A DNA stretch of 45,544 nucleotides from Thermomicrobiales bacterium (GTDB taxonomy: Bacteria > Chloroflexota > Chloroflexia > Thermomicrobiales > CFX8), in assembly GCA_041751795.1 (NCBI GenBank), contig JBGSWU010000011.1, forward strand, positions 1 to 45,544, written 5' to 3'. This document shows, one piece after another, positions 514-34,342 of this stretch. Every line of letters begins with the position of its first letter. The first letter of the stretch is position 1. The notes under the pieces are model-generated. The model was not told the DNA's origin. It made no database searches and was given only the letters and a program-made list of their open reading frames with translations. A program made the translations under genes and the position numbers.

Positions 514-703
514 TATGGCCTCCAGGGAGTTTCTACGAGGGTTCGGTGAAAACACAACGCAGGCTGGTGAGCCTGCGTATACACCCGATTGTCAGCGCCT
601 GCTGTTCAGCCGAATGGCGTAACACGCTTGAATGTGGCTGCAGTGTAGCATGGGGATCATTGCGACAAGCCGCGATCATCCTGAAATTTCTCACCGCAAA
701 GTG

Positions 704-734
704 ATGGCTGCCAACCGCATCGGTTGGCAGCCAT
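704..734 (-). terminator. Perfect 13-bp inverted repeat (ATGGCTGCCAACC / GGTTGGCAGCCAT, 5-nt loop) just downstream of the membrane-protein gene
   Basis: Read directly from the sequence. It lies 22 nt past the TAA at 756-758 on the minus strand. Only a weak T tract (CACTTTG) follows, so it may be a terminator or just a stabilising hairpin. Confidence 0.35.
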
Positions 735-755
735 AGTGGACCGTCGAGTCCGGTG

Positions 756-1154
756 TTAGCTGGGATCTGCCTCGCGGAACGCCTGACGAGAGGCCGGCAG
801 GGCGATCAGAGCGAGAATGACGAACCCGATCGGGATGAATACGATCAATCCGGCCAGGAGCCAGTTGCTCGGCGGATTGAAGAGCCCTGGGATCGAGGTA
901 AGCGTGTTGATCGCCGTTAATGCGAAGGTTAGGATCATCCCCCAGCGACGCAGGTTCCACATGCCCCAGGCTCCGACGAGCGATAACACTCCGGCGACGA
1001 TCCCGATGACGATCGCGAACGCGGGAATCTCGTCCGCTCCCGGCGCGAAGAACATCGGTATCGTCGCGAGTTGGGACACGACCGTCAGTAGAATGGCTGC
1101 CGTGACGGTTGCTGGCCGAACGACGGCTGGTCGGACTGATGCTGCAGTTGCCAT
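756..1154 (-). CDS. Small integral membrane protein (about 4 TM helices), no recognised family
   Basis: ORF 756..1184. The internal ATG at 1154 is preceded by GGAGG (TGGAGGTATAAACATG). Hydrophobic segments include AAILLTVVSQLATIPMFF, AFAIVIGIVAGVLSLVGAWGMW, MILTFALTAINTLTSI and LLAGLIVFIPIGFVILALIAL. Confidence 0.7.
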   Translation of the reverse strand: MATAASVRPAVVRPATVTAAILLTVVSQLATIPMFFAPGADEIPAFAIVIGIVAGVLSLVGAWGMWNLRRWGMILTFALTAINTLTSIPGLFNPPSNWLLAGLIVFIPIGFVILALIALPASRQAFREADPS

Positions 1155-1325
1155 GTTTATACCTCCAGTTTTGTGCGTCGACACGCGTCGATGCTATCTG
1201 GAAGCGACTGTATAGCTCCCGGTTTCCCAGTCGGAAGTGGAAAATATCCCAATCCGGTCGGGCAGTTGCTCCTGCTGTTATGGGGTTTCATTCCCGTCCG
1301 GATCGATGATGAAGATGAGGACGTC

Positions 1326-1982
1326 TCAGGGATGGCGGCGGCCGAGCCCCGCTTCCCGGGCGCGCTCGATTGCCTCGGCACGGTCGGCAACCTGCAGCTT
1401 GCTGAAGATGACAGAGACGTGGTTGCTGACGGTCTTGACTCTGATGCCGAGTTGCTGAGCGATGCGCGGGTTGGGGTATCCCTGCGCGATCCGCTCCAGA
1501 ATCTCGCGCTCGCGGTCCGTCAGCATCGGGAAGACTGCTACTGGCGCCGGTCGCGGATCGGAGAACAGCGTCAGGATGCGCGTTGCGACCGAGGGACTGA
1601 AGATGGCCGACCCACCGGCAACCGCGCGAATCCCGCCGAGCAGGTCGGCGTCTTCGGCGTCCTTCAGCACGAATCCCCGTGCCCCGGCCCGCAGCGCCAG
1701 AAAGACCGAGTCGTCATCCTGAAACAGGGTCACGACCAGGATCTTCACATCCGGCTGGTTCTCGAGAATGGCGCGGGACGCCTCGATGCCGCTCAGATCC
1801 GGCATCTGGAGGTCCATCACGATCACGTCGGGCACGAGCGCCGCTGCCGCTGCGATTGCCTCTCGCCCGGTCGATGCCTCTCCGACTACCTCAATATCCG
1901 GCGCCGTGCCGAGTACCGCTCGCATTCCGCGTCGAACAAGTGAATGATCGTCAACGATGAGGAGGCGGATTGTTTCAGTCAT
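1326..1982 (-). CDS. NarL/FixJ (LuxR-type HTH) response regulator
   Basis: MTETIRLLIVDDHSLVRRGMRAVL...VIVMDLQMPDLSG is the receiver domain. C-terminal LTDREREILERIAQGYPNPRIAQQLGIRVKTVSNHVSVIFSKLQV is the LuxR HTH. The ATG at 1982 overlaps the kinase stop (1975-1977) by 8 nt. Confidence 0.9.
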   Translation of the reverse strand: MTETIRLLIVDDHSLVRRGMRAVLGTAPDIEVVGEASTGREAIAAAAALVPDVIVMDLQMPDLSGIEASRAILENQPDVKILVVTLFQDDDSVFLALRAGARGFVLKDAEDADLLGGIRAVAGGSAIFSPSVATRILTLFSDPRPAPVAVFPMLTDREREILERIAQGYPNPRIAQQLGIRVKTVSNHVSVIFSKLQVADRAEAIERAREAGLGRRHP

Positions 1983-4065
1983 CGCCGTGCGCCTTTCGCG
2001 GCAACGGCAACTGGACCCGGATTGCCGTTCCACCAGCAGGGTGGGGAGCGATCAAGAAGGTGCCACCGAGTTCCGTCGCGCGTTCCCTCATCGAGAACAA
2101 TCCAATCCCTGCCTGGTAGCCCGATTCAATGCCTATGCCATTGTCCTCAATCTCAAGGAGCAGATCGTCGTCGATTGTCAGACGGACCACACACCAGCGT
2201 GCGTGGGCATGGTTGCTGACGTTCGCCAGCCCCTCCTCGACGATCCGGTAGACGGCGACTTCGACGGCGGCCGGCAGTTCGGGCAGGTGCGCCGGTAAAC
2301 CGAACTCCACGGTAAGGTCGCCAGTGTTGTACTGGCGCAGCCTTTCCTCGAGCGCGACCAGCAGGCCCAGCTCATCAATTGCCGGTGGACGCAGGCCGTG
2401 GACGAGTGTCCGGATCGACGTGATCGCCTTACGAAGCTGGGTTCGCAATTCGGCTATCTCGTCCTTGGCGGCGGCAGGGTCGGCGTCGATCAACGCTGGT
2501 AGCGCCCCCCATTGGAGATTGAGCGCTGCGAGTTGTGATCCCAGACCATCGTGCAGATCGCGTCGGAGCCGTCGCCGCTCCTCCTCCCGCGTTTCGACGA
2601 GGCGCTCGCGGGCCTGTTGCAACTCATGGGTCAGCTGGACGGCGTGGACGGCGATCCCTGCCTGCCGCGCCAAATCGTCCAGAAGCCGCAAGTCAGCCAT
2701 CCCGAACGCCTCGCCAGGCGAGCGTGGCGCGAGCATCAGCTCGCCGACCGGAATGTGCTGATAGACCAGCGGCAGCGTCACTGGATCGCGAACAGGTTCG
2801 CCACTCGCCACAGCATATGACGGCCCTGCTCCACCTGTCACCGCGATCGCTGCATAGGGAAGCTTGAGCGCCTCGCGGACCGTGCCGACGATTGTCGGCA
2901 GGACAGCATCGGGCGCCAGCGTGCTCTCCAGCCGCTGCCCCAGGCGGGCGATGACGGCATAGGGTTCATCGCGGTCGCCAAACAGCATCCGGCTGACCAG
3001 ACGCTGGATGTAGACGCGCAACGGGTGGAAGAGGACAGCGACGACTCCGGTCGCCACAAGTGAGAAAACCAGGTTGCCGTCCGAGCGAAACACGGTGCCG
3101 AGCCAGCCGACGATGAAGATGTAGATTGCGACGACGCAAGCGGTCAGCGCGAGGTAGACCAGTGCGCGATTGATGATGACGTCGATGTCCCAGAGATGGT
3201 AGCGCAGGATCGCGATCCCCATCGTGATCGGTATCAGCGCGTACGACAGCGAAAGCAGCGGACCGGTCACGAAGTAGGCCGGATTGTCGAACGCGCGTGC
3301 AACGAAATCGGCAACGAACGTTGCGACGAGCAGGACCATTGCAACAACGACCCAGGTGTACTGCTTACGGACCTCGCCCCGCGCGGCGCGAAAGCGTCCG
3401 ATCAGCAGCGTCACCGAGAGGATGCCGCAGACCCCGAGTATCAACACGCAGAGTCCGGCGTCGATAAAGGTGAGCGGCACGTCGAGCGGGCTAGGCGTTC
3501 GTTCGTAGATTTCCGGGAAGCCGGGCGGGACGACCTCGCCGGTCATTAGCGCTGATACCAGCCCAGCCGTCGTTAGAATCGTTAGACCCGCAACAACGCC
3601 GGTGCGTCGGTCTGTAATGCGGCCACTGGGAAACAGCAACACGGGATACATCGGAAAGAGCGCGATGACACCGATCCAGACGTTCGTCCATAGTCCGAGC
3701 GCCCCGCCCGGGAGATCGGGCCGTGTCTCCAGGCTGTAGACCGCCCAGGCAGCGCCGAGGGAGCCGATTTGCGCCAGCAACCCCATGCCAATAAAGAGCC
3801 AGCCGAGCCTGTTCCCCCGGCATCGGGTCGTGACGAGTGCGCCAACGACGCTGTAGGCGACAGCAGCGACGACCTGATACGGCTCGGCGATCTTCCAGAC
3901 GTCCTGGGCGTTGCGATTGAGGACTCCCAGGATCCCGATCGGCAGCAAAAGCGCACACACGATAGCGCAAATAACCCAGGGCAAGGTCGACGCCCACGAC
4001 CGGCGCTCCACGTCGAGGTTAAGGCTTTGGTAGGGCGCGCTGCGGTCGATCGGGGCAGTGTGCAT
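1975..4065 (-). CDS. Sensor histidine kinase: multi-TM N-terminus, GAF-like region, HisKA_3 dimerisation domain and HATPase
   Basis: H-box RLRRDLHDGLGSQLAAL and the N/G boxes (NVSNHA, DNGIGI, GIGLFSMRERA) are typical of NarX/DesK-type kinases. About 8-10 hydrophobic helices lie N-terminal. Start chosen at ATG 4065 (MHTAPIDRS...) because the 67 upstream codons of the track ORF (to 4266) are Arg/His-rich and unlike protein. No strong SD, so the start is uncertain. Confidence 0.85.
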   Translation of the reverse strand: MHTAPIDRSAPYQSLNLDVERRSWASTLPWVICAIVCALLLPIGILGVLNRNAQDVWKIAEPYQVVAAVAYSVVGALVTTRCRGNRLGWLFIGMGLLAQIGSLGAAWAVYSLETRPDLPGGALGLWTNVWIGVIALFPMYPVLLFPSGRITDRRTGVVAGLTILTTAGLVSALMTGEVVPPGFPEIYERTPSPLDVPLTFIDAGLCVLILGVCGILSVTLLIGRFRAARGEVRKQYTWVVVAMVLLVATFVADFVARAFDNPAYFVTGPLLSLSYALIPITMGIAILRYHLWDIDVIINRALVYLALTACVVAIYIFIVGWLGTVFRSDGNLVFSLVATGVVAVLFHPLRVYIQRLVSRMLFGDRDEPYAVIARLGQRLESTLAPDAVLPTIVGTVREALKLPYAAIAVTGGAGPSYAVASGEPVRDPVTLPLVYQHIPVGELMLAPRSPGEAFGMADLRLLDDLARQAGIAVHAVQLTHELQQARERLVETREEERRRLRRDLHDGLGSQLAALNLQWGALPALIDADPAAAKDEIAELRTQLRKAITSIRTLVHGLRPPAIDELGLLVALEERLRQYNTGDLTVEFGLPAHLPELPAAVEVAVYRIVEEGLANVSNHAHARWCVVRLTIDDDLLLEIEDNGIGIESGYQAGIGLFSMRERATELGGTFLIAPHPAGGTAIRVQLPLPRKAHGDD

Positions 4066-4321
4066 GGTGCTGATCCAGACGATCGCGATGAGACGGCGAT
4101 GGTGGCTCGTATGGCGCTCAGTGTAGTCGTGACTGTTCCTGATGAGAAGGGGGATTCTTCCCGGTCTCCCGGGATAGCGGTCCCGGGTAATCAGGCAGAT
4201 GTTTCTTCTCCCAATACGCGACGCACTCGTCGGCAGCACGACGTTCATCACGTGGCGGTGTACCATGGCGACTGTGGCACTCGTCTGTGGCGGGTTCGGG
4301 TTTCTCTTAAGGACGACGCGT

Positions 4322-5230
4322 ATGAAGTGCGATGCGGACGACGATATGCCGATTCCCTACATGCAGCGCACGCGTGACTATTATCTGGCGCTTGGTTACA
4401 ACAATCCGTACCGATGGGCGCACTTCGATGACGTGCCATTTGCGCCGCTGACGAAGCCGCTGGCGGAGTCGCGACTGGCACTGATCACGACGGCTGCGCC
4501 GTACCAGCCGGAGGCTGGCGACCAGGGGCCGGGGGCAACGCTCAACGCTGCGGTGAAGTTCTTCCGGGTCTATTCCGACTCGACCGACGCCGCACCCGAC
4601 CTTCGCATATCGCACATTGAATACGATCGCACCCACACAACTGCCAGCGATTCGAACACCTGGTATCCGCTGGCGCAATTACGACAGGCCGTCCATTCGG
4701 GGCGGCTTGGTGGCCTGACCGCTCGATTACACGGCGCGCCGACGAACCGCAGTCAGCGGATGACGATCGAGCAGGACGCGCCCGACCTTCTGGCTCGTTG
4801 CCGCGAGGATGGCGCTGATGTGGCCCTGCTCGTTCCTACCTGACCCGTTTGTCACCAGACCGTGGGTCTGGTTGCTCGCCACCTCGAAGCCAACGGCATT
4901 CCGACGGTCATCATTGGCTGCGCGCTGGATATCGTCGAGCATTGCGGTGTGCCACGCTATTTGTATAGCGACTTCCCGCTCGGTAACTCTGCAGGAAAGC
5001 CGAACGATGCTCAATCGCAGGCAGATACCCTCGAACTCGCGCTGCAACTTCTGGAAACCGCAACCGCGCCGCGAACGACCGTTCGCTCCCCACAACGCTG
5101 GAGCGACGATGCTTCATGGAAACGAGACTACAACGATCTCGATGTACTGACGCCCGACGAGATCGCCCGACGACGAACAGCGTTCGATGGTTCAAAAGCG
5201 ACGATCAAGCGGCTACAGGGACGAACCTGA
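4322..5230 (+). CDS. Glycine/sarcosine/betaine reductase component B / proline reductase PrdB-family protein, predicted selenoprotein (Sec encoded by TGA 4841-4843)
   Basis: Track ORFs 4199..4843 and 4862..5230 share a frame and are separated only by TGA 4841-4843. Read-through gives ...GADVALLVPT-U-PVCHQTVGLVARHLEANGIPTVIIGCALDIVEHCGVPRYLYSDFPLGNSAGKP. No SD precedes the GTG at 4862. Start ATG 4322 has AAGGAC upstream; ATG 4346 is an alternative. Confidence 0.75.
4854..4872 (+). promoter_or_regulatory. SECIS-like stem-loop downstream of the in-frame UGA
   Basis: ACCAGACC (4854-4861) pairs perfectly with GGTCTGGT (4865-4872). The apical loop is GUG, or CGUGG if the closing pair opens. The stem starts 10 nt after the UGA. 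Confidence 0.5.
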
Positions 5231-5237
5231 CCGGCGA

Positions 5238-6635
5238 TCAATCCTCGATCGTCGTGAACAGGTTGTTGAGCGATTCTGCAAACGTCGGATGTGCCAGAAC
5301 GGCATTCTGGACGACGGGATAGGGAAGCTTGCCCATCATCGCCAGTTGCACCATCGACATGATCTCGCCACCTTCGATGCCGAGAACCGTGCAGCCAAGG
5401 ATCTGTTTCGTGTCGGCATCGACGATGGCCTTCATGAACCCACGAGTCTCGTCGGTTTCGAGCGCCCGGGCGACCGAACTCATCTTCATCTTCGCGACCT
5501 TGAAGTTGCGTCCCTGCTCGCGTGCTTCGGATTCGCTGATGCCAACCCGCCCCAACTGGGGGTCGATGTACATGACGTATGGCACGAGTCGATCTGCGAT
5601 CGTGTCGTTACCACCTTCGATCAGGTTGGTTCGCAGCACTCGGAAGTCGTCGTACGAGACATGGGTGAAGGCCGGGCCACCTTTGACGTCGCCGACTGCG
5701 TAAATCCCGGGTGCCGTGGTTTCCAACCGCTCGTTTACCTCGACGTAGCCGCGATCGTTGGTCTGGACTCCGGCTGCCTCAAGGTTGAGCATGTCAGTGT
5801 TCGGTATTCGACCAACCCCGACAAGGAGATGTGATCCAGTCAGTTCGCGTTTGGAATCACCGACACTGACCGTCATCGTGATCTTGCCGTCCTGTCCGGA
5901 CGCGACCGTTTCTGCGGTCGCATCAAGCAGCACCTCGATCCCGTCTTCGCGCAGGATCTCGGCAACGGCTTCGGCAACATCATCGTCCTCGCGATTGACC
6001 AGTTTCCTGCCGCGCTGAACGACGGTGACATCGCTGCCGAAGCGCCGGAACATCTGCGCGAACTCGAGTGCCACGTAGCCACCGCCCAGCACGAGCAAGT
6101 GCTCAGGCACGTCGGCGAGTTCCATGATGCTCGTTGAGTCGAGATACTCAATCGTGTCCAGCCCATCAAGATCGGGGGTTCGCGGTCGCTCGCCAGTGTC
6201 GATGATAATCGTCGATGCGCTGAGGTGTTTGGTACCGCCATCGTTTAGCGCCACCTCGATCATTTTCGCTCCGGTGAAGCGCGCTTCACCCATGAGAAGA
6301 TCGACGTTTTCGGTGTTCTCAAGACCGCGCTCGCTTCCACTGCGGAAACTGTCGACGATGTCGCGCTTGCGCTTGCGGACGACTTCCATATCGACGGTTG
6401 GCGCGGGTATCTGCACGCCATAGTCGGCTGCGCGCCGCGCGAGGTGCGCGACCCGCGCGCTGGCGACCATCGTTTTCGTCGGGGTACAGCCGACGTTCAC
6501 GCAGGTTCCTCCAACGTGTTCTCTCTCGATCAGGGCGACGGTCTTTCCGGCTTTCGCGAAGGTGGTTGCCAATGGCCCCCCGCTCTGCCCGGATCCGATC
6601 ACAATGACATCGTAGGTCTGCCGGGGTGTGCTCAT
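5238..6635 (-). CDS. Class-I pyridine nucleotide-disulfide oxidoreductase (FAD/NAD(P), mercuric-reductase or dihydrolipoamide-dehydrogenase-like)
   Basis: MSTPRQTYDVIVIGSGQSGGPLA is the FAD GxGxxG motif. GGTCVNVGCTPTK is the redox-active CxxxxC. LLVLGGGYVALEF is the NAD(P) fold and a C-terminal dimerisation domain follows. AAGGAG precedes ATG 6635. No C-terminal Cys pair, so it is probably not a true MerA. Confidence 0.9.
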   Translation of the reverse strand: MSTPRQTYDVIVIGSGQSGGPLATTFAKAGKTVALIEREHVGGTCVNVGCTPTKTMVASARVAHLARRAADYGVQIPAPTVDMEVVRKRKRDIVDSFRSGSERGLENTENVDLLMGEARFTGAKMIEVALNDGGTKHLSASTIIIDTGERPRTPDLDGLDTIEYLDSTSIMELADVPEHLLVLGGGYVALEFAQMFRRFGSDVTVVQRGRKLVNREDDDVAEAVAEILREDGIEVLLDATAETVASGQDGKITMTVSVGDSKRELTGSHLLVGVGRIPNTDMLNLEAAGVQTNDRGYVEVNERLETTAPGIYAVGDVKGGPAFTHVSYDDFRVLRTNLIEGGNDTIADRLVPYVMYIDPQLGRVGISESEAREQGRNFKVAKMKMSSVARALETDETRGFMKAIVDADTKQILGCTVLGIEGGEIMSMVQLAMMGKLPYPVVQNAVLAHPTFAESLNNLFTTIED

Positions 6636-6804
6636 TCGTGTTCTCCTTGTCACGTCCTGCACCGATGGTTGCACGAAGGATGCCGCACCCGGTCTGCATT
6701 CTTCGTGAGCGGGATTACATCTGATCGCAGGGTTCAGGAAATTGGGATGAGCCGTGATCATCGGCACCTGGTTAGTCACCCGACGAATGATCCCGACGTG
6801 GCAT

Positions 6805-6847
6805 CGCCGGTGTGCGTCTGGTTCAGATCCCCAGACACACACCGGCG
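6805..6847 (-). terminator. 17-bp stem hairpin directly after the PEP-utilising enzyme stop
   Basis: On the minus strand CGCCGGUGUGUGUCUGG, a 9-nt loop, then CCAGACGCACACCGGCG (one G-U pair). It starts 15 nt after the TAA (6865-6863). No U tract, as with the other GC-rich hairpins here. Confidence 0.55.
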
Positions 6848-6862
6848 AGTGTTCAAACGTTG

Positions 6863-8572
6863 TTACCCTCGCGCGTCGCTATCCTGATCGCTCAGTATCC
6901 GGACAACGCCAGTGTCACCATCGACCTCGATGAGGTCGCCGTCGCGAATGACGGTTGTTGCGACGCCAGCGCCAACGACGGCAGGAATGCGGTACTCACG
7001 GGCGACGACGGCTGAATGACTCAGGACGCCACCTGTGTCGGTGACGACTGCCCCGGCTGTCGCAAAGAGTGGCGTCCAGGCAGGTGCAGTTGTTGGGGCG
7101 ACGAGGATGTCACCCTTCATGAGTCTACCGGCGTCCGCGAGCGACTCGACGACCCGCGCGATGCCCCGGACTGTTCCGGACGACCCGGAACTCCCTCGAA
7201 TCACGAGAATGCCGTCGGTGTGCTCCGGTTCGGGCGCGGGTGCACCAAAGAACTTTCCGATTGTCCGGCTGAGCGGATCTTCCGGCGGCGGTCCCGGCGG
7301 CAGTGTCCCGAGTGCCGGCGGCGTGACCTGACGGAAGTGCGCCATCTGCGCTGTCCGTACCGCAACGATGCCCTGTCGTTTGATGTGGGGCAGGAACGTC
7401 GCCGTATCACGGAGTTCCTGCGATGTCAGCATGAAGACGTCCTGGGGATCGTCCAGCACACCGGCCTCAGTGAACCGGCGACCGAACTCGAGCAACACCT
7501 GTCGAACCTGATAGATGGCCCCAAAGTCGATGTAGTAGTTGTGATCTTCACTGATGATCGTCGCCTGCTGGGCATAGTCGAGCATCGACTCGAACTTGTC
7601 GATCAAGTTCTGGGGATAGGCGCTGATTGGGACTCGAGCTTCCGCAACCAGACGTTCTCGCTCGGTAGCCAGCGATGCCATTTCGCTGTCGAAGTCGAGG
7701 TTTGGCTGGCTGATGTACTCCTGAAGCTGCCGGATGGCGTGGCTGGGATCTTCGATCCAGGTGATGAATCCGACGCCGAGTTTCTCACCGCGCCGTCCGT
7801 AGACATCGAGGAACGCGTGGAAGTCGGCCAGGAATGCCCGTCCCTCATTCGACTGTTCGAGGGCCGCGAAGACGTTTGACGCGCCTGACTCGGCGAGCGC
7901 GGCGGACAGCATCGGTGATCCCAGCACCTGGCGGCTCAGTTTCCAGAGGGCACGACCCATCTCGACCGTTTTGTTGTCGAAGCCCTGCATCAGCCGGTAG
8001 GCGACAAGGCCATTGTCGGTGCCGAACAGATCCTGGTACAGGTCATCGAACGTGCTCATCGCCATGTAGACCGGGAGTGTCTGGAGGAAGTGGATCTGCC
8101 AGACGCGGTTGTGACGGTCGTTCGTTTCACGTAGATGTGCCAGCAACTCCGACATTGACGCGTTTGTGAGATCGAAGGCTTCCCAGAACGCAAGGTGCTC
8201 CTATACTTCCGGAAGCCACTCGTTGTTCCAGAGCGTCGTCAGTTGTGCAATCGTCGCTTCCAGCCGTTGAATCCCTGCCTGCATCCGTGCGGGCATCTCG
8301 GACAGTTCGGCGACGGTCGGAACGACTGTGAAGTACCAGCGGTAGTTGATGTGTCGTGGGATGTACTTCAGTGGTACGCCGAACTCGATCAGCGACCAGT
8401 TGAACTGCAGATGGCTATCACGCATGTACTCGAAGTCCAACGGCGTGATTGGGTCCGGCCAGTGCATCCGTTCGACCTGCCAGAACTCATTGGCATCGTC
8501 AGGGTGTTCCCAGGTGACCGGAAAGTCGGTTGGGATGGGTAGAGGTTTTGGCGTGGGTTCCGCCGTGACCAT
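6863..8572 (-). pseudogene. PEP-utilising enzyme (swivel phosphohistidine mobile-domain protein) interrupted by one in-frame TAG at 8201-8203
   Basis: Track ORFs 8201..8572 and 6863..8155 share a frame (8572-8155=417). Read-through gives ...[40 protein letters not shown]... No SD precedes ATG 8155. The C-terminus ([16 protein letters not shown]...[48 protein letters not shown]) is the PEP-utilisers mobile domain with the phosphohistidine. Confidence 0.7.
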
Positions 8573-12440: not shown

Positions 12441-12610
12441 CGTTTCGTTCAGGTCATTCGCGTTTCCGGGCAACAACCGTCCGGTTGTACGAGTCTGGAA
12501 GGGGGCCATCGGGAAGGCTGACAGGGGTTTCGGGCTGCTGTGCGCTCAGCATGTCCGTTGGCTGGCGGTATGTTCACCGCCAGGTGTGGTGGTACGGAGG
12601 GAGCACATTG

Positions 12611-15600
12611 GTGAAACCAGTGCCTGCCCGGCGCGTGCGACACGCGTCCGTGGCCGTCTCGGCCGTGATGATCCTCTCGATGTTACTCGTTGGAATTGGC
12701 GGAACCAGTGTTGGTGGCGCGACGGCAACGCAGATGCGAGTCTCGTCCAAGTCCGACGCTGCGATGCGCAAGGTTCACCCGCAACTTCTGCGGGCGGCGA
12801 AGGACTCGCCGGACACCTGGGTCCAGATCCGCGCCTACGCCAAGACCGGAACGGATCTCTCGGCCTACATGTGGGACGCACTTGCTCCCGCCTATGTCGG
12901 GCCGACCGGGTATACGACGATCACCGGCACGATCCTGGCACACAACGTGAGCAAATTGGCTGGTGTCGAGGGCGTCGCCTCGGTCTTCCCGCTGACCGGC
13001 GCTGCCCTCCCGGACCGGAAGTATGACGAGAACCGGACGACGGCACCCGTGCTGAGCGCCGATGTCCAGGCGCGGTTGAGCGAACGGCTCCAGTCCGGCC
13101 AGCGCAACAACTATCCGTACGCGACCCAACCAGTCGCCAATGGCTGGTATGACGTCCTCGGTGGTCACGACTCCCAACTTGCCTGGGAAAAGGGATACAC
13201 CGGCGAAGGCGTCAAGGTCATGGTTAACGACTCGGGCATCGACTTTGCCCACCCTGACCTGATGGGTACGCAGGCACGTGTGACAGACCCGAGTTCGCCG
13301 TACTACGGCTGGCCGTTGCAGTTCGACCAGTTCTCGATGTACCTGCTGGCGCGTGACTTCTATCTCGGTGAGGCGAACATCGCCGCCGGATTTGGTGCGT
13401 ATGCTGATACCAGCACGGTCGTTACTGACGGCAGCGCGTCGTATCAGCCGGTTGATGCCGATGCTCCGTACGATTACACGCTGACCGGCACGAGCATAAG
13501 TGGCGACTACCACATCGGCACCCACCCGGATAACGGGTTGCGGCAGTGGTATCGCCTGATCAACGAGATCGATCTGGCTGATCCACAGGCGCACGACGAG
13601 CGACCAGCGATTCTTGTCGCTGACGAGAGCGTCGCTGGCGTCTACGACACGGTCTACGTTGACCTGAACTTCAACAACGACTTCACCGATGAGAAGCCGC
13701 TTCGCAAGGGTGACGAGATTGGCGGAGCCGACTGGTGGGGCGCCTGGAACCCGGAAACGGGCGACTTCGATCCCGAACCGGACGGCCTCTACGATCAGTC
13801 TGCGGGTATGCTCTACTGGATCGCTGACGGTGTGAACTCTGTCCCGGCTGCCGACTGGTGGTGGGGCATTGGTGCAGCCGGCAATGGCGCGTCTGACGAG
13901 GGCGATCCGGCTTCGGGCAACCTCGTTCTTTTCTCGGTTCAGGACTACATCGCCAGCCCTGGTGGTGACCACGGCCAACTCTGCGCCTCGGGCGTCGCAG
14001 CTCAGGGCATCACGAATGCTCCATCGGCGCTGAACGGCGCGTACCCGACCTACAAGCCCGAGGGCACGAACGGCATGGTCACGGCAGCCGGCAAGGGTGT
14101 TGAACTCATCAACGCCGGTGACTTCTACTCGCTGCTCGGAACCGATGCGTTCTACTTCGCGGCACTCGGTTACGATGGCGTTCCTGGAACCGACGATGAC
14201 ACCCAAATCATGTCAAACTCCTGGGGCTATTCTGAGATCCACAACGATGGCTGGGATCAGATGTCGCGTGAGATCGACTCGATCGTGCGCTTCCTGAACC
14301 CGAGCCTCCTCGTGATGAATTCTGCCGGTAACGGCGCACCGGGCTTCGGCACGACCGGCCATCCCGCTCCAGCCGCTGGTATGTCGATCGGTGCTTCGAC
14401 GCAGTACGGCTCGACCGGCAACTTCGACTCGATCGTCAGCGCCGGGCAGATCACTCATGGTGATGTCGTCTCATGGTCTGGTCGTGGGCCAGGTGCACGC
14501 GGCGATGCTGGAATCAGCCTGCTCGGAAATGGCTCGGTTGGTTCGGGCGCAGCCCCACTGAATGAGTTCTTCTCCGGTGCAAGTTCATGGTACCCATGGG
14601 GTGGCACCAGCCGCTCGACCCCGGTTGCCGCGGGTAACGCAGCACTCATGTATCAGGCGTACTACGAAGCGAACGGCAGTTGGCCGGACTTTGAAACGGC
14701 CAAGGCGATCCTGATGAGTGGCGCAAAGGACCTGAATTACGATCCGTTCCTCCAGGGCGCTGGCTCGATCAACGGCAATCGAGCCGTAGATATCGCCTCA
14801 GGCGGTGGCGGTGCCTATATCACGCCGAGTGAATGGATCGCAGGCTCCTGGCATGGTGAGGAGTACCCAGCGTTTACCAACATCATGAAGCCGGGGGAGA
14901 CTGACGACGCCTGGTTCGAGATCCACAACCCAGGTGACTCCGATCTGCACTTTGACGTCGGCTCGCGCTGGCTGCTGAAGCAGGGTGAGTGGACGAATGA
15001 CTTCACGTCTGCGCCAATCAGCCAGGAGCCGCTCGACTGGGAAGAAGACAATCCAATCGGGACGGCGAGCAGTCTCAACGCACCGCATTACCTTTGGAAC
15101 ATCACTGACTTGGTTCCGGAATCGACCGATGTGCTGGTCGCGCGGATAAATGTTCCGTACGCTCAGTTCGACCCGGCTGGTTCGTACAGCGCGACAGAAA
15201 TCAATATCTGGCGCGTCTACGGCTACGACTGGACCGATGTCAACGGTGACGGCAATCTCTGGACGGACGACAATGGAGATGGTCTGGTCCAGGATGATGA
15301 GCTGGATGCCGGAGAGTACATCCGCTTCAACTACGGCTACAACGCGAGCCAGGCCAACACGCTGACCATCCAGAATCCGCGCGGTCGCGCAACGGACGGC
15401 ATCTTCCTCGGCCTGATCCACGAACAGGCACGAGAGGATGTTCCGCAGACCAACATCAACATGCTGATGGAGTTCTACGAGCAGACCGAGTGGGACTGGG
15501 TCGAATCGTACAGTGACGCAGTGACGGTTCCGGCTGGCGGCAGCAACCGGGTCAACGTCCGTGTCGCCGTCCCGGGTGACGCTCCGCACGGTGCGTACGA

Positions 15601-16840
15601 GGGTGCGATCTGGTTCAACGACGGGTACTGGACGTCGACCGTGCCGGTGACGATCAATGTCGCAGGCACATCCAACATCGAAACTGGCGTCGCCGACGAC
15701 GATACGCTGGATGTCGAGCCGTACTATCGCAACAATCAGGTGTATGGCGCCCAGGCATGGGACTGGCGGCAGGAGTCGGGCGACTGGCGCTTCTACTTCG
15801 CTGACCTGTCCGAGACTCCCGGCGGCCTCGGTCAGCCGGATCAGGGTCAGCGCTACTTCATGGTAGATTCCTGGTGGGAACACATGCCTACCGACGTCAA
15901 TGTTCACATCTATGGCCCAACGCTGGACTGCTTTACGGGTCTGGAAGACTGCGCTGGCTTGTTCGATCCGTACAATCCGGCAACTTACGGTCCGTACACG
16001 CTCGAACGACTCGGCGGCAGTGACGAGTTCTACGTCGGGTCCGGTGTCTTCCTGACAGCAACGTCGAGTGGAACGAACCGTGAGTTCGTGGCGGCCCCGT
16101 ACGTTCCGGGCCTCAACGAAGTCATGCTCGACAACGTGAACTTCGCTTCGGCTGAGCAGGCTGAATCATTCGGCATGCAAGCTGGTGCGCTGTCCGTCTC
16201 GGTTGCGCCAATCGACGTGTCACGGCCATCCGGGAATCCGGGCTTCCTGATTCAGGAGCAGGTCGTATCGACGATGGATCTTTCCGGACTGGTCGTCCAA
16301 GGCTTTGGCCTGAGCCGCCCAGAGGTCAAGACTGGCCTGCCGATCAGTCAGGACGATCCAAATGATCCATTCACCGCCAGCTACACCGAGCAGTTCACCG
16401 TCGGCAACGCTGGTCTGCTGGACATCTCGACGGCTGGACAGGATGGCGATGACCTCGACATCTACCTGCTGTATGACTTCAACGGCGACGGTGAATTCAC
16501 CGCTGATGAACTGGTGGGCGCATCGACAACGCCGACTGCCGACGAGCACATCCGGATCACGCTGCCTGCGGCTGGTGAATACAAACTGCTGGTCCAGGGG
16601 TGGGCGATCCCGACGGAAGAGTCGACGTTCGATCTGTCGATCAACATCGTCCAAGGTGACGACATCACCGTCACCGATCTGCCGCAAGGCCAGATCATCC
16701 CTGGCGTTCGCTACAACTTCACGATCGAGTTCAGCCCGGAGGGTGTTGAGCCAGGTATCTACGAGGGCCTGATCGCACTTGGCCCACCGGAAGGACCCGC
16801 CGCAATCCTGATCCCGGTGACCTACGAGATTCGGGAATAA
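12611..16840 (+). CDS. Very large secreted subtilisin-family (S8) serine peptidase with C-terminal accessory domains
   Basis: Catalytic Asp in VMVNDSGIDFAHPDL (codon 13229-13231), His in GGDHGQLCASG (13970-13972), Ser in GGTSRSTPVAAGNAALMY (14609-14611). Signal/anchor VKPVPARRVRHASVAVSAVMILSMLLVGIGG. GTG 12611 lies 7 nt after GGAGGGAG. Asp-rich Ca-binding-like loops (DVNGDGNLWTDDNGDGLVQDDELD and YDFNGDGEFTADELVG). Confidence 0.9.
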   Translation: MKPVPARRVRHASVAVSAVMILSMLLVGIGGTSVGGATATQMRVSSKSDAAMRKVHPQLLRAAKDSPDTWVQIRAYAKTGTDLSAYMWDALAPAYVGPTGYTTITGTILAHNVSKLAGVEGVASVFPLTGAALPDRKYDENRTTAPVLSADVQARLSERLQSGQRNNYPYATQPVANGWYDVLGGHDSQLAWEKGYTGEGVKVMVNDSGIDFAHPDLMGTQARVTDPSSPYYGWPLQFDQFSMYLLARDFYLGEANIAAGFGAYADTSTVVTDGSASYQPVDADAPYDYTLTGTSISGDYHIGTHPDNGLRQWYRLINEIDLADPQAHDERPAILVADESVAGVYDTVYVDLNFNNDFTDEKPLRKGDEIGGADWWGAWNPETGDFDPEPDGLYDQSAGMLYWIADGVNSVPAADWWWGIGAAGNGASDEGDPASGNLVLFSVQDYIASPGGDHGQLCASGVAAQGITNAPSALNGAYPTYKPEGTNGMVTAAGKGVELINAGDFYSLLGTDAFYFAALGYDGVPGTDDDTQIMSNSWGYSEIHNDGWDQMSREIDSIVRFLNPSLLVMNSAGNGAPGFGTTGHPAPAAGMSIGASTQYGSTGNFDSIVSAGQITHGDVVSWSGRGPGARGDAGISLLGNGSVGSGAAPLNEFFSGASSWYPWGGTSRSTPVAAGNAALMYQAYYEANGSWPDFETAKAILMSGAKDLNYDPFLQGAGSINGNRAVDIASGGGGAYITPSEWIAGSWHGEEYPAFTNIMKPGETDDAWFEIHNPGDSDLHFDVGSRWLLKQGEWTNDFTSAPISQEPLDWEEDNPIGTASSLNAPHYLWNITDLVPESTDVLVARINVPYAQFDPAGSYSATEINIWRVYGYDWTDVNGDGNLWTDDNGDGLVQDDELDAGEYIRFNYGYNASQANTLTIQNPRGRATDGIFLGLIHEQAREDVPQTNINMLMEFYEQTEWDWVESYSDAVTVPAGGSNRVNVRVAVPGDAPHGAYEGAIWFNDGYWTSTVPVTINVAGTSNIETGVADDDTLDVEPYYRNNQVYGAQAWDWRQESGDWRFYFADLSETPGGLGQPDQGQRYFMVDSWWEHMPTDVNVHIYGPTLDCFTGLEDCAGLFDPYNPATYGPYTLERLGGSDEFYVGSGVFLTATSSGTNREFVAAPYVPGLNEVMLDNVNFASAEQAESFGMQAGALSVSVAPIDVSRPSGNPGFLIQEQVVSTMDLSGLVVQGFGLSRPEVKTGLPISQDDPNDPFTASYTEQFTVGNAGLLDISTAGQDGDDLDIYLLYDFNGDGEFTADELVGASTTPTADEHIRITLPAAGEYKLLVQGWAIPTEESTFDLSINIVQGDDITVTDLPQGQIIPGVRYNFTIEFSPEGVEPGIYEGLIALGPPEGPAAILIPVTYEIRE

Positions 16841-16901: not shown

Positions 16902-17107
16902 TGTGTCCTGACAGTCACCGGATGTGTGCCGCATGCCTTGCGTGACAATCTGACACCTTTCCTCGCGACTTCCCGCGCATCGCGCTATGATGGATAGCGT
17001 TCCGCTACGGGTATTCGGTCATTGGGGATGATCGATGCTGAACGGGTACGGTGGAACGTGACCAGCGGTTGACACTGAGGAACATATACGAAGCGAAGGG
17101 GGCGACG

Positions 17108-18913
17108 ATGGCGTTGGCCAGTCTGCACACCACGCGCACCGTCAAGGTGTTGTCTGTCATGCTCGCGTTGGGCATGCTCGGGCTAGGGATTGTGAACGTG
17201 CTTGCGGTCGCACCCGCGACACCAGAGTTTGATCGTACCTGGGCGCGGACTGACAAGCCGGTGGCCGATGGCAATGTTGACCGGACATGGATGTGGGGGC
17301 CGGAAGCCAATACCGGAGCGATTGAAGAATCGTATGACGAGTCGCCGGAGGGCGTTAGAACAGTCCAGTACTACGATAAGAGTCGGATGGAGATCACCCA
17401 TCCAGATGCCGTCGATGATGGCGTCTGGTATGTCACGAACGGTTTGCTCGTCAACGAGTTGATTTCAGGCCGGGTGCAGGTCGGTGACACGCTTTTCCAG
17501 GTGCGCCAGCCAGCTGAAGACATCAATGTTGCTGGTGATCCGGACGACGTAAACGGACCGACCTACGAGACCTTCAGTCATCTGCTCGATCTTCCACCGC
17601 TGGCCGACGGCGCTCCCGTGATTCAGCGTCTGGCCCGCGATGGCACGATCACTGACGATCCATCGCTCGCTGACGCCGGCGTGACCGCTGCCTATCGTGT
17701 CCAGGTGATCGGGATCGATCATCAGATTGCCTCGCCATTCTGGGAGTTCATGATCTCTCAGGGGATCGTCTACGAAGACGGCGAGTTCGTTGAGGACGCG
17801 TTGTTCCAGAATGCGTTCTACGCGACCGGGTATCCCGTTGCCGAAGCGTACTGGGCGAGTGTCAAGGTGAAGAACACTGTCCAGGATGTCCTGATGCAGT
17901 GCTTCGAGCGACGCTGCCTGACCTACACGCCGGGCAACGAGGATGGCTGGCAGGTCGAGGCCGGTAACGTTGGCCAGCACTACTATCGCTGGCGCTATCC
18001 AGACGTCCCAACGCCGACACCAACCAGTACGCCGACCGAAACGCCAGCTGGAACAGCAACCAGCACAGCCACGAACACAGCTACGAGCACGCCGACTGCA
18101 ACACCAGTACCGCTGGCAGACGAGCGCTTGCTTATTGCTAACCTGAGAGGTGCGACAACCGCTGCTGCGGGGACCGGCGTGGCCTACTTCTATGTCCATG
18201 AGGACGGAAGCGCCATCGACTATCAGATCGTCGTCGCTGACCTCAGCAACATCACCGCTGCGCATATTCACGATGGTAGTGAAGATGAGAATGGCCCGAT
18301 CCTCGTAACATTGTTCGAGGCCGCTGACGGAACTTCAGTCACGCCGAATGGTGTGCTCGTCGAGGGAACGATCGAGTCGGATGATCTTCCAGATGATTTG
18401 ACGATCGCAGAACTGACGAACCTCATGGTGGATAGTGAGGTCTACGTCAACGTCCACACGACAGGTCAGCCAACCGGAGCGATTCGTGGGCAGACCCGGG
18501 TACTCGAGGTGGCCAGGCTGCGCGCAGCGCTCAGCGGCGAAAACGAAAACCCACCTGTCAACACGACCGCGACAGGCGCCGCACTCCTCACCTACGATGC
18601 CGATCTTGGAACCTTGTCGTTCCAGGTCGCCATCAATGGCATAGAGGGGTTGTCAGCGATTCATATTCACGCTGGTTCCGCCAACGAGAATGGGCCGGTT
18701 CTCGCGACGTTGTTCGTCGCGCGTCCGCCGCTCCCGTACTTCTCCGATGTCATCAATGGGACGGTGACCGCCGACGACCTTGAGGACATGACGATGGAGG
18801 AGCTGGTCTACCGGATGCTGACGGGCGACACCTACGTCAATGTCCACACTGGATTCAACCCTGACGGCGAGATCCGCGGCCAGATTGGGATCAGTGTAGG
18901 CGGCGTGGAGTAG
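17108..18913 (+). CDS. Secreted protein: unrecognised N-terminal module (paralog 1), Pro/Thr linker, two CHRD domains
   Basis: ATG 17108 is preceded by AAGGGGG. Signal/anchor VKVLSVMLALGMLGLGIVNVLAVAP. The N-module (FDRTWARTDKPVADGNVDRTWMWGPE...QCFERRCLTYTPGNEDGWQVEAGNVGQHYYRWRYP) is shared with the ORFs at 31523 and 34343. PT linker PTPTPTSTPTETPAGTATSTATNTATSTPTATP. Two CHRD-like units contain AAHIHDGSEDENGPILVTLF and AIHIHAGSANENGPVLATLF. Confidence 0.85.
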   Translation: MALASLHTTRTVKVLSVMLALGMLGLGIVNVLAVAPATPEFDRTWARTDKPVADGNVDRTWMWGPEANTGAIEESYDESPEGVRTVQYYDKSRMEITHPDAVDDGVWYVTNGLLVNELISGRVQVGDTLFQVRQPAEDINVAGDPDDVNGPTYETFSHLLDLPPLADGAPVIQRLARDGTITDDPSLADAGVTAAYRVQVIGIDHQIASPFWEFMISQGIVYEDGEFVEDALFQNAFYATGYPVAEAYWASVKVKNTVQDVLMQCFERRCLTYTPGNEDGWQVEAGNVGQHYYRWRYPDVPTPTPTSTPTETPAGTATSTATNTATSTPTATPVPLADERLLIANLRGATTAAAGTGVAYFYVHEDGSAIDYQIVVADLSNITAAHIHDGSEDENGPILVTLFEAADGTSVTPNGVLVEGTIESDDLPDDLTIAELTNLMVDSEVYVNVHTTGQPTGAIRGQTRVLEVARLRAALSGENENPPVNTTATGAALLTYDADLGTLSFQVAINGIEGLSAIHIHAGSANENGPVLATLFVARPPLPYFSDVINGTVTADDLEDMTMEELVYRMLTGDTYVNVHTGFNPDGEIRGQIGISVGGVE

Positions 18914-26747: not shown

Positions 26748-26993
26748 ATGGCTCGCCAGCACGCCTCATTCCTCCTGCGTTGTTGGTTTCTCGGCAGCGA
26801 CAGCGAGCGGATCGAGATCGTCCACGTCCAGTCTGGAACGAAAGTCCTCACCCGGTCGGTCGGGTCGGCGATCGAGTGGATCTGTGCGCATGGGGACGCG
26901 ATGACTGTGGATGATCCCGACGGCGATCCGTTGTGCGCGGTCAACAGCGACGAGAGCGAACTGGAGGTGCCATCCAGCCTGAAGCGCGAATGA
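26748..26993 (+). CDS. Small hypothetical protein (81 aa) with N-terminal SFLLRCW...RIEIVHVQSG motif and acidic C-terminal tail
   Basis: GAGGAG lies 5 nt upstream of ATG 26748. No family name recognised. Coding status rests on the strong SD and a protein-like composition. Confidence 0.5.
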   Translation: MARQHASFLLRCWFLGSDSERIEIVHVQSGTKVLTRSVGSAIEWICAHGDAMTVDDPDGDPLCAVNSDESELEVPSSLKRE

Positions 26994-27040
26994 CGGTTGG
27001 TAGCGGTTCAAACAGTGCACAGTTCCAGAAAGGGTCTCAG

Positions 27041-30000
27041 ATGTTTCATCTTACCAACGGCATAACAACCATGAATCGTATGCCCAGTGCCATGCCACGA
27101 TTGATCACGTTCGTCTTCATCGTGGCGATGTTGTTCGCAGCTGCCGGAATGCGCTTCTGGCCCGTGGCAACGGCTTCGGCTGCCGAGGTCGCGCCGCCGT
27201 TCGGTTGGAGCATGCTCCCTCGACATACGGGAACCAGCCTGATTGACCCGAACAACCTCGCCGCTGCTCGCGAGTACGTCAACCCCACCGACGGCTACCG
27301 CGTCCGCTTCGACGGTTGCGACGCGGTCATGGACAACTTCACCAGGACGACGCATACCTACACAATCACCGGCGGGGCGCTCACCGCGCCGAAGGTCGTT
27401 TCCGCGTCCGCTGAAGCATTCATGAATCCACCGAAGCTCGGTGGGGGTTTCGAGCCTTTCGACTGCGCCAGCCTGCGGGTCATTACACCGCTGCAGCAGG
27501 GAACGTACTCAGTCAGTCTTAACGTGACAATGGCTGACGGCTACACAGCCGACTCCGCCCCACAGACGATCGTCGTCAAAGACATCCTGATCATCTCGGT
27601 CGGCGACTCCTACGGCTCCGGTGAGGGCGCGCCCGACAGCTTTGTCAAGTTCGGCCTGCTCGGATACGCAGAAACGCCGGCAGTCTGGCAGGACCAGCGC
27701 TGCCACCGCTCGGCGTGGGCTGGCGCGTCGAAGGCGGCGGCGATCCTCGAACAAAGTGACCCACACACCTCGGTCACCTTCGTCTCGCTGGCCTGCTCGG
27801 GCGCGACGATCAACACGCCGATCGACGACAACCCCGACGACGGCGTCGTCAACATGGCGAAGTACCAGGGTGGCGGACTGCTGACCGGCTACAGTGGGAT
27901 CGAGCACGACGGCAGCTACAACCCAACCAGCTTCCTGCCGCCACAGATGGAGCAGGCGGCCCGGATCGCCAATGGCCGCGCGATCGACGCGCTGACAATC
28001 TCTGGTGGCGGCAACGACATGCACTTCGCGAACGTCATCATCGACTGTGTCCTCAGCGATTGCAGCACCAATACGACGACGGCCAACAGAATCGCCAACG
28101 ACTTTATTCAGTTGGAGATCCGCTATCAGGAACTCGCCGCGTTCATCAACAACGAGCGGGATACATCGGACGTGCCGGCGTTGAACATCACCCCCGACCG
28201 TGTCTTCATCACCGAATACCCGGACCCGACCCGCGACATGGACGGAAGCTGGTGCCAGGTCAATCAACTCGACGATCCGTTGCTTGCCTTCCCCGTCACA
28301 GGCATCACCAGGACAGAGATGGCCTGGGCGTCTGGCAACCTCGTCAAGCCGATGAACCAGGCGATTCAGAACTACGCGACCCAGCATGGCTGGAACTATG
28401 TCACCGGAATTGCCGCCGAGTTCTTTGGCGATCCAGCCAATGGAGTACCCGGCCGCGGCTGGTGCGCACTGGGCGAGGATGCCAACGGCGAGCCGAATAA
28501 CTGGGTCAATCGCTCCGTCCAGGCGCTGGGGATGCAGGGGCCGGTCACCGCCCCACTCGGCCTCTTCGCCTTCTACGGGACGCTTGGCATTGGCCTCTCG
28601 ATCGTGAGCGGTGGTATCTCGCTCGTGCTGACGTTGGTGTCAGCCGCCGTGTTGATCGTCGAACTCAAGGGCACTGCCGGTACCATGCACCCCAACCGGA
28701 TGGGCCAGATGGTCTACGCACGCCATATCGCCTCCGCCGTCCAGAACCGGTTCAACGGCGTCGTGCCACAGCCTGGTGACACGACCCCGCCGGCGATCGC
28801 TCCGGCCCAGAACATCACTGTTGAGACGCTGGACGCCGCCGGAGCGATCGTCAACTACCCGATCCCGGCCACGACCGACAACGTTGATGGACCCGGTCTG
28901 GCGAGTTGCGCTCCGGTGTCAGGCGGCCTCTTCCCAATCGGAACAACGCCTGTCACCTGCTCGGCCCAGGACTCCTCTGGCAACCAGGCGCCGCCGGTCA
29001 ACTTCTCGGTCACGGTTGAGCCGACCACAGGGGCGCTGCCTGATCCAGCGGTTGTCCGAACCTCGCTTCGCTCCGGCTGCACGTATGCCAATAGTGACGA
29101 CCAGTCGATCGAGAATGGCGCCGGTCCGGTCTCTTTTGACGGCACGAATGTCACCGGTTACGCAGGCGTCGACGCCCTGAAAGCCCGCGCCAGCGCCACC
29201 AACGACGACTGCGGCATGCGCGTTACCTCGGCAATGAATCTGACGGTCGGCGCTGGTGAGACCAATCTGGTCGACGGCGATCCCGTCCTGCTGGTCGTCA
29301 CGCTCGGCCTTGACGGTACGCTGACAACGTCGGCTGACGACAATCAGGTCGCCATCGCGGAGATGGCTGCCAACTACTCAATCGCTGAAACAAACTGCCT
29401 GAGCCCAGGGCCGAGCCCAGCGTTATTTGGTGATGACGGCGGCTACTGCCCTTCGATCGTCGACTTCAGCGCGAGCATCGACATGGATCAGTACGGCGGC
29501 GCGACCGATCAGTGGTACGCTCGCGCGATGTGGTCGGTCACGAGCAACGTCGGTGACGAGCAGTCCGATTTCGCCGATATCTACTGCGACGACGGCTGCG
29601 CCGATCCGGTCCGCTTGCCATTCAACACTGGCGTTCGTACCGTTATTTTCGAGTCCTTCGTTGGCGCGCGACTGAGCGTCAGCGGCATGCTGGACACCTT
29701 CGCGACCGGCTACCTCGGCGCAACCGCCGTCTCCGACTTTGCCAACACTTTCTCGCTGGGCGTCGTCCAGCCAGCAGCGGGCTTCGAGGGGTTGAGCATC
29801 GACTATACCCAGGAGGTCATCAACCAGTCGCCGACCGTCGAGATTGCCGGACCATATAGCGTCGAGGAGGGCGACTCGGTCACGCTGACCGCGTCAGGTA
29901 ACGACCCCGAGGGTAGCGCACTGACCTACGTCTGGGACCTCGACGGTGATGGCGAGTACGAGACGAGTGGCCAGGACGCCACGTTCTCCGCAGCCGCGAT

Positions 30001-34141: not shown

Positions 34142-34201
34142 TCCACCGAGAATCGCTGAAGGCGAGACCGGCTTGGGATGTCTTTTCCTGAGCCGGTTCC
34201 G

Positions 34202-34219
34202 CCTGTCCGAATGGACAGG
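34202..34219 (+). terminator. Intrinsic-terminator-like hairpin after paralog 2
   Basis: CCTGTCC, loop gaat, GGACAGG, followed by TGCGTTTCT. A second 8-bp hairpin GGCTGGCA-gtgt-TGCCAGCC lies at 34285-34304. Confidence 0.5.
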
Positions 34220-34342
34220 TGCGTTTCTACCCTATCGTCCATAGTGGCACAACATTCCGTCTAACTATCCTGCTCAATGGTTTCGGCTGGCAGTGTTGCC
34301 AGCCGTGTCTGTGATCAAGGTTGATCTGAGCAAGGGGGATCG

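Follow-up and report, generated by a model that had tools for sequence, protein, structure and literature searches.

A PrdB-like gene on a Chloroflexota contig with an in-frame UGA very probably recoded to selenocysteine

Positions 4322..5230 on the plus strand of a 45,544-bp stretch of DNA, hereafter the window, which is an entire NCBI contig of a Chloroflexota MAG, very probably form one gene for a 302-residue orphan PrdB-like selenoprotein in which UGA 4841–4843 is recoded to selenocysteine (Sec). The ORF track divides the gene into two open reading frames, 4199..4843 and 4862..5230. An earlier note on this DNA had stated that both are in the same frame and are split solely by TGA 4841–4843, and this was confirmed from the window sequence. 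Read-through translation of the joined ORFs gives …DGADVALLVPT-stop-PVCHQTVGLVARHLEANGIPTVIIGC…, and the peptide across the recoded UGA reads …LLVPT-U-PVCHQTVGLVAR. The joined product comprises 301 sense codons and the UGA-Sec codon, number 174, and ends at the true stop, TGA 5228–5230. U174 (4841..4843) belongs to a U-P-V-C motif; its column is Cys or Sec in homologs, with the TGA conserved. The second redox residue of the motif, Cys177, is encoded by TGT 4850..4852; it occupies an invariant column in the alignment of 19 homologs and corresponds to the Cys of U-G-T-C in authentic PrdB. By analogy with the GrdB/PrdB literature, Cys177 is presumed to be the resolving cysteine of a U-x-x-C redox pair.

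The proposed start is ATG 4322, which is preceded at a distance of 8 nt by a Shine-Dalgarno (SD)–like AAGGA (4309..4313), a putative signal recognized from its sequence only. When the N-terminal 173 residues were used as a query, nearly all of the best 120 matches were proteins of 172 to 175 amino acids (aa) that end at the equivalent TGA, which confirms the start at ATG 4322. Counted from this codon, the 302 residues equal the length of the nearest relatives, and homology is continuous to full-length proteins of 300 to 313 aa. Three of the nearest relatives with available DNA (L245–L247) have 302 codons and the same layout as the window gene. Gene callers split these relatives, as well as L248, into 173- and 122-aa pieces. 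For the window, the deposited gene call is a 214-aa product, and the downstream piece is 122 aa long, beginning at GTG 4862. The earlier note had anticipated that gene callers would fragment the gene, as they indeed do.

A protein database search with the joined product returned thousands of full-length homologs (300 to 313 aa, 64 to 72% identity). In the alignment of 19 full-length homologs, the UGA column is Cys in 19/19, in the context N-C-P-V-C-H-Q; the CPVCHQ that the earlier note gave for Cys-containing relatives is therefore correct. The aligned column of the joined product is thus Cys or Sec: authentic prdB genes, which we retrieved by a tblastn search of plasmids, carry an in-frame TGA there. 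The RefSeq prdB genes of Peptoclostridium acidaminophilum and Terrisporobacter petrolearius are annotated through this TGA as a single CDS, and the TGA aligns exactly with that of the window (TAG-U-GTCHRS versus VPT-U-PVCHQT). Homologs neither start nor end at the UGA, since Cys-type proteins run continuously across the site and TGA-type genes are in frame on both sides of it. The U-x-x-C motif lies, as had been proposed, in the middle of one continuous domain.

Using one genome from each GTDB species, we looked for the pattern TGA-CCN-GTN-TGY-CAY-CAR...GCN-MGN-CAY and obtained at least 120 loci. TGA thus stands at the exact position of the window UGA in the genomes of at least 120 species belonging to many phyla. 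All 120 listed loci are homologous to the window gene, in frame both before and after the TGA, with 33 to 67% identity. They include Alpha-, Beta-, Gamma-, and Deltaproteobacteria, Acidimicrobiales, Rokubacteria/Methylomirabilota, and Binatia, and within the Chloroflexota, TGA-type copies are found elsewhere in Dehalococcoidia and Anaerolinea. The nearest relatives with DNA (L245–L248, 73 to 80% identity) all read LLVPT-U-PVCHQTV. Since they carry the TGA, it is ancestral to the clade of the window and not a private mutation.

Several further features were seen among these homologs. At the residue before the redox codon (window 4838–4840), Asn predominates among Cys-type genes (99/113) but is found in only 12/117 Sec-type genes, the other 105/117 having Leu, Val, Met, Ser, Thr, or Ile there; the window has Thr. 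Clade structure could account for this difference, as could an effect of codon context on the decoding of UGA. At some loci of the TGA type (L009, L037, L015, L052, and L073 of Reyranellaceae, around 5473), the frame is open far upstream (419 to 595 codons) or downstream (394 codons in L073) of the Sec codon; these long open frames may be fusions with neighboring domains or may reflect the scarcity of stops in GC-rich DNA. In one Cys-type homolog, P0016, the 31 residues QTISLVARHLEANGISTVVMGCAKDIVEHAA are duplicated in tandem right after CPVCH (alignment columns 217 to 247), which is probably an assembly artefact.

The hairpin downstream of the UGA is a candidate SECIS upper stem-loop, ACCAGACC / GUG / GGUCUGGU, at 4854–4861 / 4865–4872 on the plus strand. 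It is a perfect 8-bp inverted repeat: in DNA letters, ACCAGACC (4854–4861) is fully complementary to GGTCTGGT (4865–4872), with GTG between them. The hairpin starts 10 nt after the UGA and falls in the codons for H-Q-T-V-G-L-V, with the apical loop ~20 nt downstream of the UGA. In the register common to the family, it is a 7-bp stem (4854–4860/4866–4872) with the loop CGUGG, and the Gly codon GGU of the window supplies the eighth stem pair. Bacterial SECIS elements are located immediately downstream of the UGA and have a small G-containing apical loop (PMC1088965, PMC2398784); the position of the window hairpin and its small G/U-containing loop fit the published description (PMC1088965). The local fold of 4835–4905 (RNAfold, 71 nt) is thermodynamically unremarkable alone (z = −0.5). 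A search of Rfam at gathering thresholds gave no match anywhere in the window, hairpin included. Thermodynamics alone does not flag the hairpin; its significance emerges on comparison with other genes.

As a control, we used 113 distinct Cys-type sites with the same pattern but with TGY in place of TGA (C-P-V-C-H-Q-x-x-x-L-x-A-R-H). Stem positions were defined as 14–20/26–32, with the U of UGA counted as 1. All seven stem pairs are formed in 78/117 TGA-type genes and in only 2/113 Cys-type genes; the mean number of stem pairs is 6.56/7 in the former (n = 117) and 5.1/7 in the latter (n = 113; Mann-Whitney p 2e-26). Across 115 TGA-type genes, the stem helix is paired in 93.7% of cells, and three stem pairs show double, compensatory changes (C-G/U-A, G-C/A-U, and A-U/U-A). 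The covariation score is 0.140 compared to 0.097 in shuffles; none of 500 shuffles reaches 0.140, and the score lies well above those of all slid registers. The covariation can be followed between individual codons. The third position of the His codon covaries with the first position of the Val/Ile codon (CAC...GUN versus CAU...AUN) in Sec-type genes (Fisher p 3e-15) but not in Cys-type genes (p 0.15). The third position of the Gln codon behaves in the same way with respect to the first position of the Leu codon (CAG...CUG versus CAA...UUG; p 1e-9 in Sec-type and p 1.0 in Cys-type genes). Of the 117 Sec-type genes, 95 have the loop CGUGA, CGUGG, or CGUGU; among Cys-type genes, the loop varies.

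Synonymous codon choice in the hairpin also distinguishes the two types of genes. The Thr codon is ACC in Sec-type genes and a mixture of ACC and ACG in Cys-type genes; Val is encoded by GTG in 95/117 of the former versus 12/113 of the latter. At the following position, which is usually Ser but may be Gly or Cys, (A/G/T)GT is found in 108/117 Sec-type genes, while Ser AGC is found in 59/113 Cys-type genes. The Leu codon is CTG or TTG in 117/117 Sec-type genes, compared to 88/113 Cys-type genes with G in the third position. The window has every Sec-type codon choice (CAC CAG ACC GUG GGU CUG GUU). Its leave-one-out log-odds score against a position weight matrix (PWM) is 9.8, close to the Sec-type mean of 10.7 ± 4.4; Cys-type sites have a mean of −15.2 and a maximum of 7.2. 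The family SECIS signature that separates the Sec type from the Cys type can be written as UGA CCN GUN UGY CAY CAG ACC GUG AGU CUG RUN.

A covariance model (CM) was built from 60 TGA-type genes, with the window left out. It matched the UGA and the SECIS hairpin at 4841..4888 on the plus strand with 70.3 bits (E 6e-14). This was the sole match in 45 kb, the next best scoring 11 bits. Four independent Sec-type relatives scored 68 to 73 bits, and 80 Cys-type sites scored 27 to 62.6 bits. The earlier note had described the 8-bp stem 10 nt after the UGA as SECIS-like. As judged from these alignments, the hairpin is a family-wide, covarying, Sec-specific element.

A lower stem (columns 6–12/34–40) was also considered and dropped from the element because its pairing in Sec-type genes is equal to or worse than that in Cys-type genes. 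A minority of Sec-type loci (L005, L010, L023, and similar ones) have CAG UCG GUC AGU UUG GCC at +12 to +33 from the TGA. In these loci, the consensus stem is broken at one pair and the loop is GGUCA or GGUCG; their hairpin may represent another form of the SECIS in this family.

The surroundings of the gene were analyzed within the same 45,544-bp contig. The window MalQ is 82% identical to that of a Chloroflexota MAG and 68% identical to that of a Thermomicrobiales MAG, which indicates an origin in the Chloroflexota. We compared the synteny of window positions ~600–5230 with that of L243 (3879–6859) and of L241 and L244. Genes for MalQ, GNAT, the PEP-utiliser, the flavoprotein disulfide reductase, and MetRS are retained in these related contigs from Chloroflexota; the contigs are without the unannotated stretch 600–1975, the HisKA_3 kinase (1978–4266), and the PrdB-like gene, and in L243, MetRS comes directly after the flavoprotein. 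Since the related contigs do not have the gene at this locus, the selenoprotein gene belongs to a variable segment, which may be a recent acquisition, although its GC content of 0.608 matches that of the contig (0.610). The convergent flavoprotein disulfide reductase gene (5241–6842) was considered as a specific redox partner and rejected, since it is kept by relatives without the PrdB-like gene.

Two more observations concern the rest of the contig. A PEP-utiliser/Rph-like gene on the minus strand (8572..6866), 3.3 kb from the PrdB-like gene, has an in-frame TAG at 8201–8203. The corresponding codon is Arg (CGG) in L241 and L244, whose proteins are intact (561 to 564 aa). The TAG is explained by a genuine nonsense lesion, by a young pseudogene, or by an error in sequencing, and the contig therefore contains at least one such lesion or error. 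Farther along, very large, probably secreted proteins are clustered at 12485–16837, 17051–18910, 26933–31327, and 31523–36214. The cluster contains a subtilase with a PPC domain, a CHRD-domain protein, and a PKD/HYR-repeat protein, as well as ORFs of 624 to 872 aa without a Pfam match, and is partly syntenic with L241.

The host might fail to decode a gene of this type. If the Sec machinery were missing or lost, translation would end at 4843, leaving an inactive fragment of 173 residues, and the gene would be a young pseudogene. No selA, selB, or selD gene and no tRNA, including tRNA-Sec (ARAGORN), were found within the 45,544-bp contig. The absence of the segment from related Chloroflexota contigs and the presence of a real nonsense codon in a nearby gene would also be compatible with decay. 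We nevertheless regard this reading as unlikely. The 302-codon alignment with L245 and L246 contains no indel, and the frame is intact; the window gene keeps every residue that is invariant in the family 3′ of the UGA. In codons 175 to 302, pairwise dN/dS, which is not specific to the window's own branch, is 0.12 against L245 and 0.08 against L246, compared to pairwise values of 0.14 and 0.17, respectively, in codons 1 to 173. The downstream values of 0.08 to 0.12 indicate purifying selection on the part 3′ of the TGA. Nothing in the SECIS is lost, and its score resembles those of functional relatives; other Chloroflexota (Dehalococcoidia and Anaerolinea) have TGA-type copies. A global reassignment of TGA was ruled out, since TGA serves as an ordinary stop for ~11/24 window genes, the PrdB-like gene included. 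A scan for other TGA-split genes across the window revealed no convincing second selenoprotein.

Recoding also has to be weighed against the idea that an ordinary Cys-type gene recently acquired a nonsense mutation (TGC/TGT → TGA) or was misread in sequencing, the hairpin then being a by-product of the encoded conserved peptide. A single base change would be enough, another gene on the contig does contain an in-frame TAG, and the conserved peptide alone yields five of seven stem pairs in Cys-type genes. However, the nearest relatives all have the TGA together with Thr at −1, where 99/113 Cys-type genes have Asn. Moreover, the window has each of the Sec-specific synonymous choices (ACC, GTG, GGT, and CTG) and, by PWM as well as by CM, scores higher than every Cys-type site. 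A mutation or error of this kind is thus highly improbable and effectively refuted. That the region contains two separate genes, as in the ORF track and the deposited annotation (214 aa, and 122 aa from GTG 4862), has a negligible probability: although gene callers make exactly this split in the window and in its relatives, GTG 4862 falls within the hairpin and in the interior of a conserved domain and, as the earlier note had observed, has no SD-like sequence upstream, the PVCHQ residues between the ORFs are invariant, and each Cys-type homolog spans the junction as one polypeptide.

To place the recoded protein among known families, we compared it to curated profiles. The score against PF07355 (GRDB) is 16.9 bits, below the cut-off of 22, and that against TIGR01918 is 30.8, below the cut-off of 65.45; many close homologs have precomputed PF07355 matches. 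The PrdB equivalog model TIGR04483 gives 83.3 bits (E 1.7e-23), below its cut-off of 300, and the GrdB, GrdF, and GrdH models (TIGR01917, NF040794, and NF040795) give 31 to 37 bits, below cut-offs of 600 to 800. The Pfam family named in the earlier note, PF09338, was incorrect, PF07355 being the right one. The note's assignment of the protein to the GrdB/PrdB family holds as far as homology is concerned, which the TIGR04483 match makes clear, but with all scores below the curated cut-offs, the product is neither GrdB nor PrdB in the strict sense.

Authentic PrdB (T. petrolearius and P. acidaminophilum) has Sec in the same column, and U-P-V-C-H of the window aligns with its U-G-T-C-H, so that the Sec/Cys-x-x-Cys motif is at a homologous position. 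The two also have in common a fold family and the conserved flanking region ...ARHLE/QRALEE-GIPT.... Their identity is 29 to 32%, and the window protein has ~35 extra N-terminal and ~60 extra C-terminal residues. Authentic prdB adjoins prdA. In T. petrolearius, prdB is two genes downstream of prdA, and in P. acidaminophilum, which served as a positive control of the PrdA search, prdA was found directly upstream of prdB. In contrast, tblastn with T. petrolearius PrdA detected no PrdA in the window or at any of more than 240 PrdB-like loci. GrdB-type proteins belong to the same superfamily. The window protein matches the C-terminal half of their models (profile positions ~204 to 430), is ~130 residues shorter than GrdB, GrdF, and GrdH, and has the motif U-P-V-C-H-Q-T without a second Cys at +6, unlike the UxxCxxC of GrdB (PMC13188914). 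The GrdA/Gly_reductase families, GrdE, and GrdC gave no match within the window, and clustering of neighbors over 241 loci revealed no conserved neighbor gene. RefSeq Cys-type proteins annotated as [quoted passage not shown] for example, those on plasmids of Roseomonas haemaphysalidis and Haematobacter massiliensis, are full-length orthologs with 55 to 62% identity and the same architecture. They differ from the window in having Cys (TGY) for the UGA and Asn for the preceding Thr and in lacking a conserved hairpin.

On the structural side, a search of PDB sequences with the family profile gave no match at E ≤ 1. AlphaFold2 modeled the closest Cys homolog with moderate confidence (pLDDT 72), and a Foldseek search of the PDB with this model gave nothing significant (best E 0.035, TM < 0.3). 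Given scores below all curated cut-offs and no PrdA nearby, the protein is filed, by its sequence, as an orphan PrdB-like selenoprotein of the GrdB/PrdB superfamily. Because no PrdA, GrdA, or GrdE partner is encoded nearby, it is unlikely to be a subunit of a genuine D-proline or glycine reductase.

By analogy with characterized bacterial SECIS elements, decoding of UGA 4841–4843 as Sec would proceed as follows. The hairpin at 4854–4872 would present its small G/U-containing apical loop ~20 nt downstream of the UGA, and SelB-GTP-Sec-tRNA(Sec) would bind this loop with the ribosome positioned at the UGA. Sec would then be delivered in place of release factor 2, and selenium would be incorporated into the protein by this organism. 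In the folded protein, the U174-P-V-C177 center presumably cycles between the selenol/thiol and selenenylsulfide states, a redox chemistry suggested by that of PrdB/GrdB.

A family with these features has been described in environmental surveys. In the Sargasso Sea data of Zhang, Fomenko, and Gladyshev (2005), "proline reductase PrdB" (pfam07355, UxxC) ranked third in abundance among the known selenoprotein families, with 42 genes (PMC1088965). In the GOS survey of Zhang and Gladyshev (2008), the PrdB family comprised 235 Sec-type and 110 Cys-type genes and was among the most abundant selenoprotein families (PMC2398784). Selenoproteins are also known from some Chloroflexi (PMC1794560). Like the window gene, the environmental PrdB family has an in-frame UGA in U-x-x-C, Cys homologs in abundance, and, right after the UGA, a SECIS whose small loop contains G; it occurs in aerobic environmental bacteria. 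We see no essential difference between the two, the window copy coming from a Chloroflexota MAG contig; the window gene was matched to the published family by motif, Pfam family, and Sec/Cys pattern rather than by direct sequence comparison. The gene is thus correctly called as a member of a known selenoprotein family published since 2005 (PMC1088965, PMC2398784), and none of it will surprise a selenoprotein specialist.

Joining both ORFs and reading codon 174 as Sec corrects the annotation of a gene of which nearly all of the closest listed database relatives are stored as 173-aa stubs. The correction implies Sec decoding by the Chloroflexota organism of the window. The literature files the family under "proline reductase," yet more than 240 loci are without a PrdA, GrdA, or GrdE partner. 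On balance, we lean toward the view that orphan PrdB-like proteins of both the Sec and Cys types are a stand-alone selenol/thiol enzyme family, rather than Stickland-type reductase subunits, which would be widespread in aerobic soil and marine bacteria and would carry its SECIS in active-site codons. Overlap of the SECIS with the codons for the active-site helix (C-H-Q-T-V-S-L-V) would place mutual constraints on RNA structure and protein sequence.
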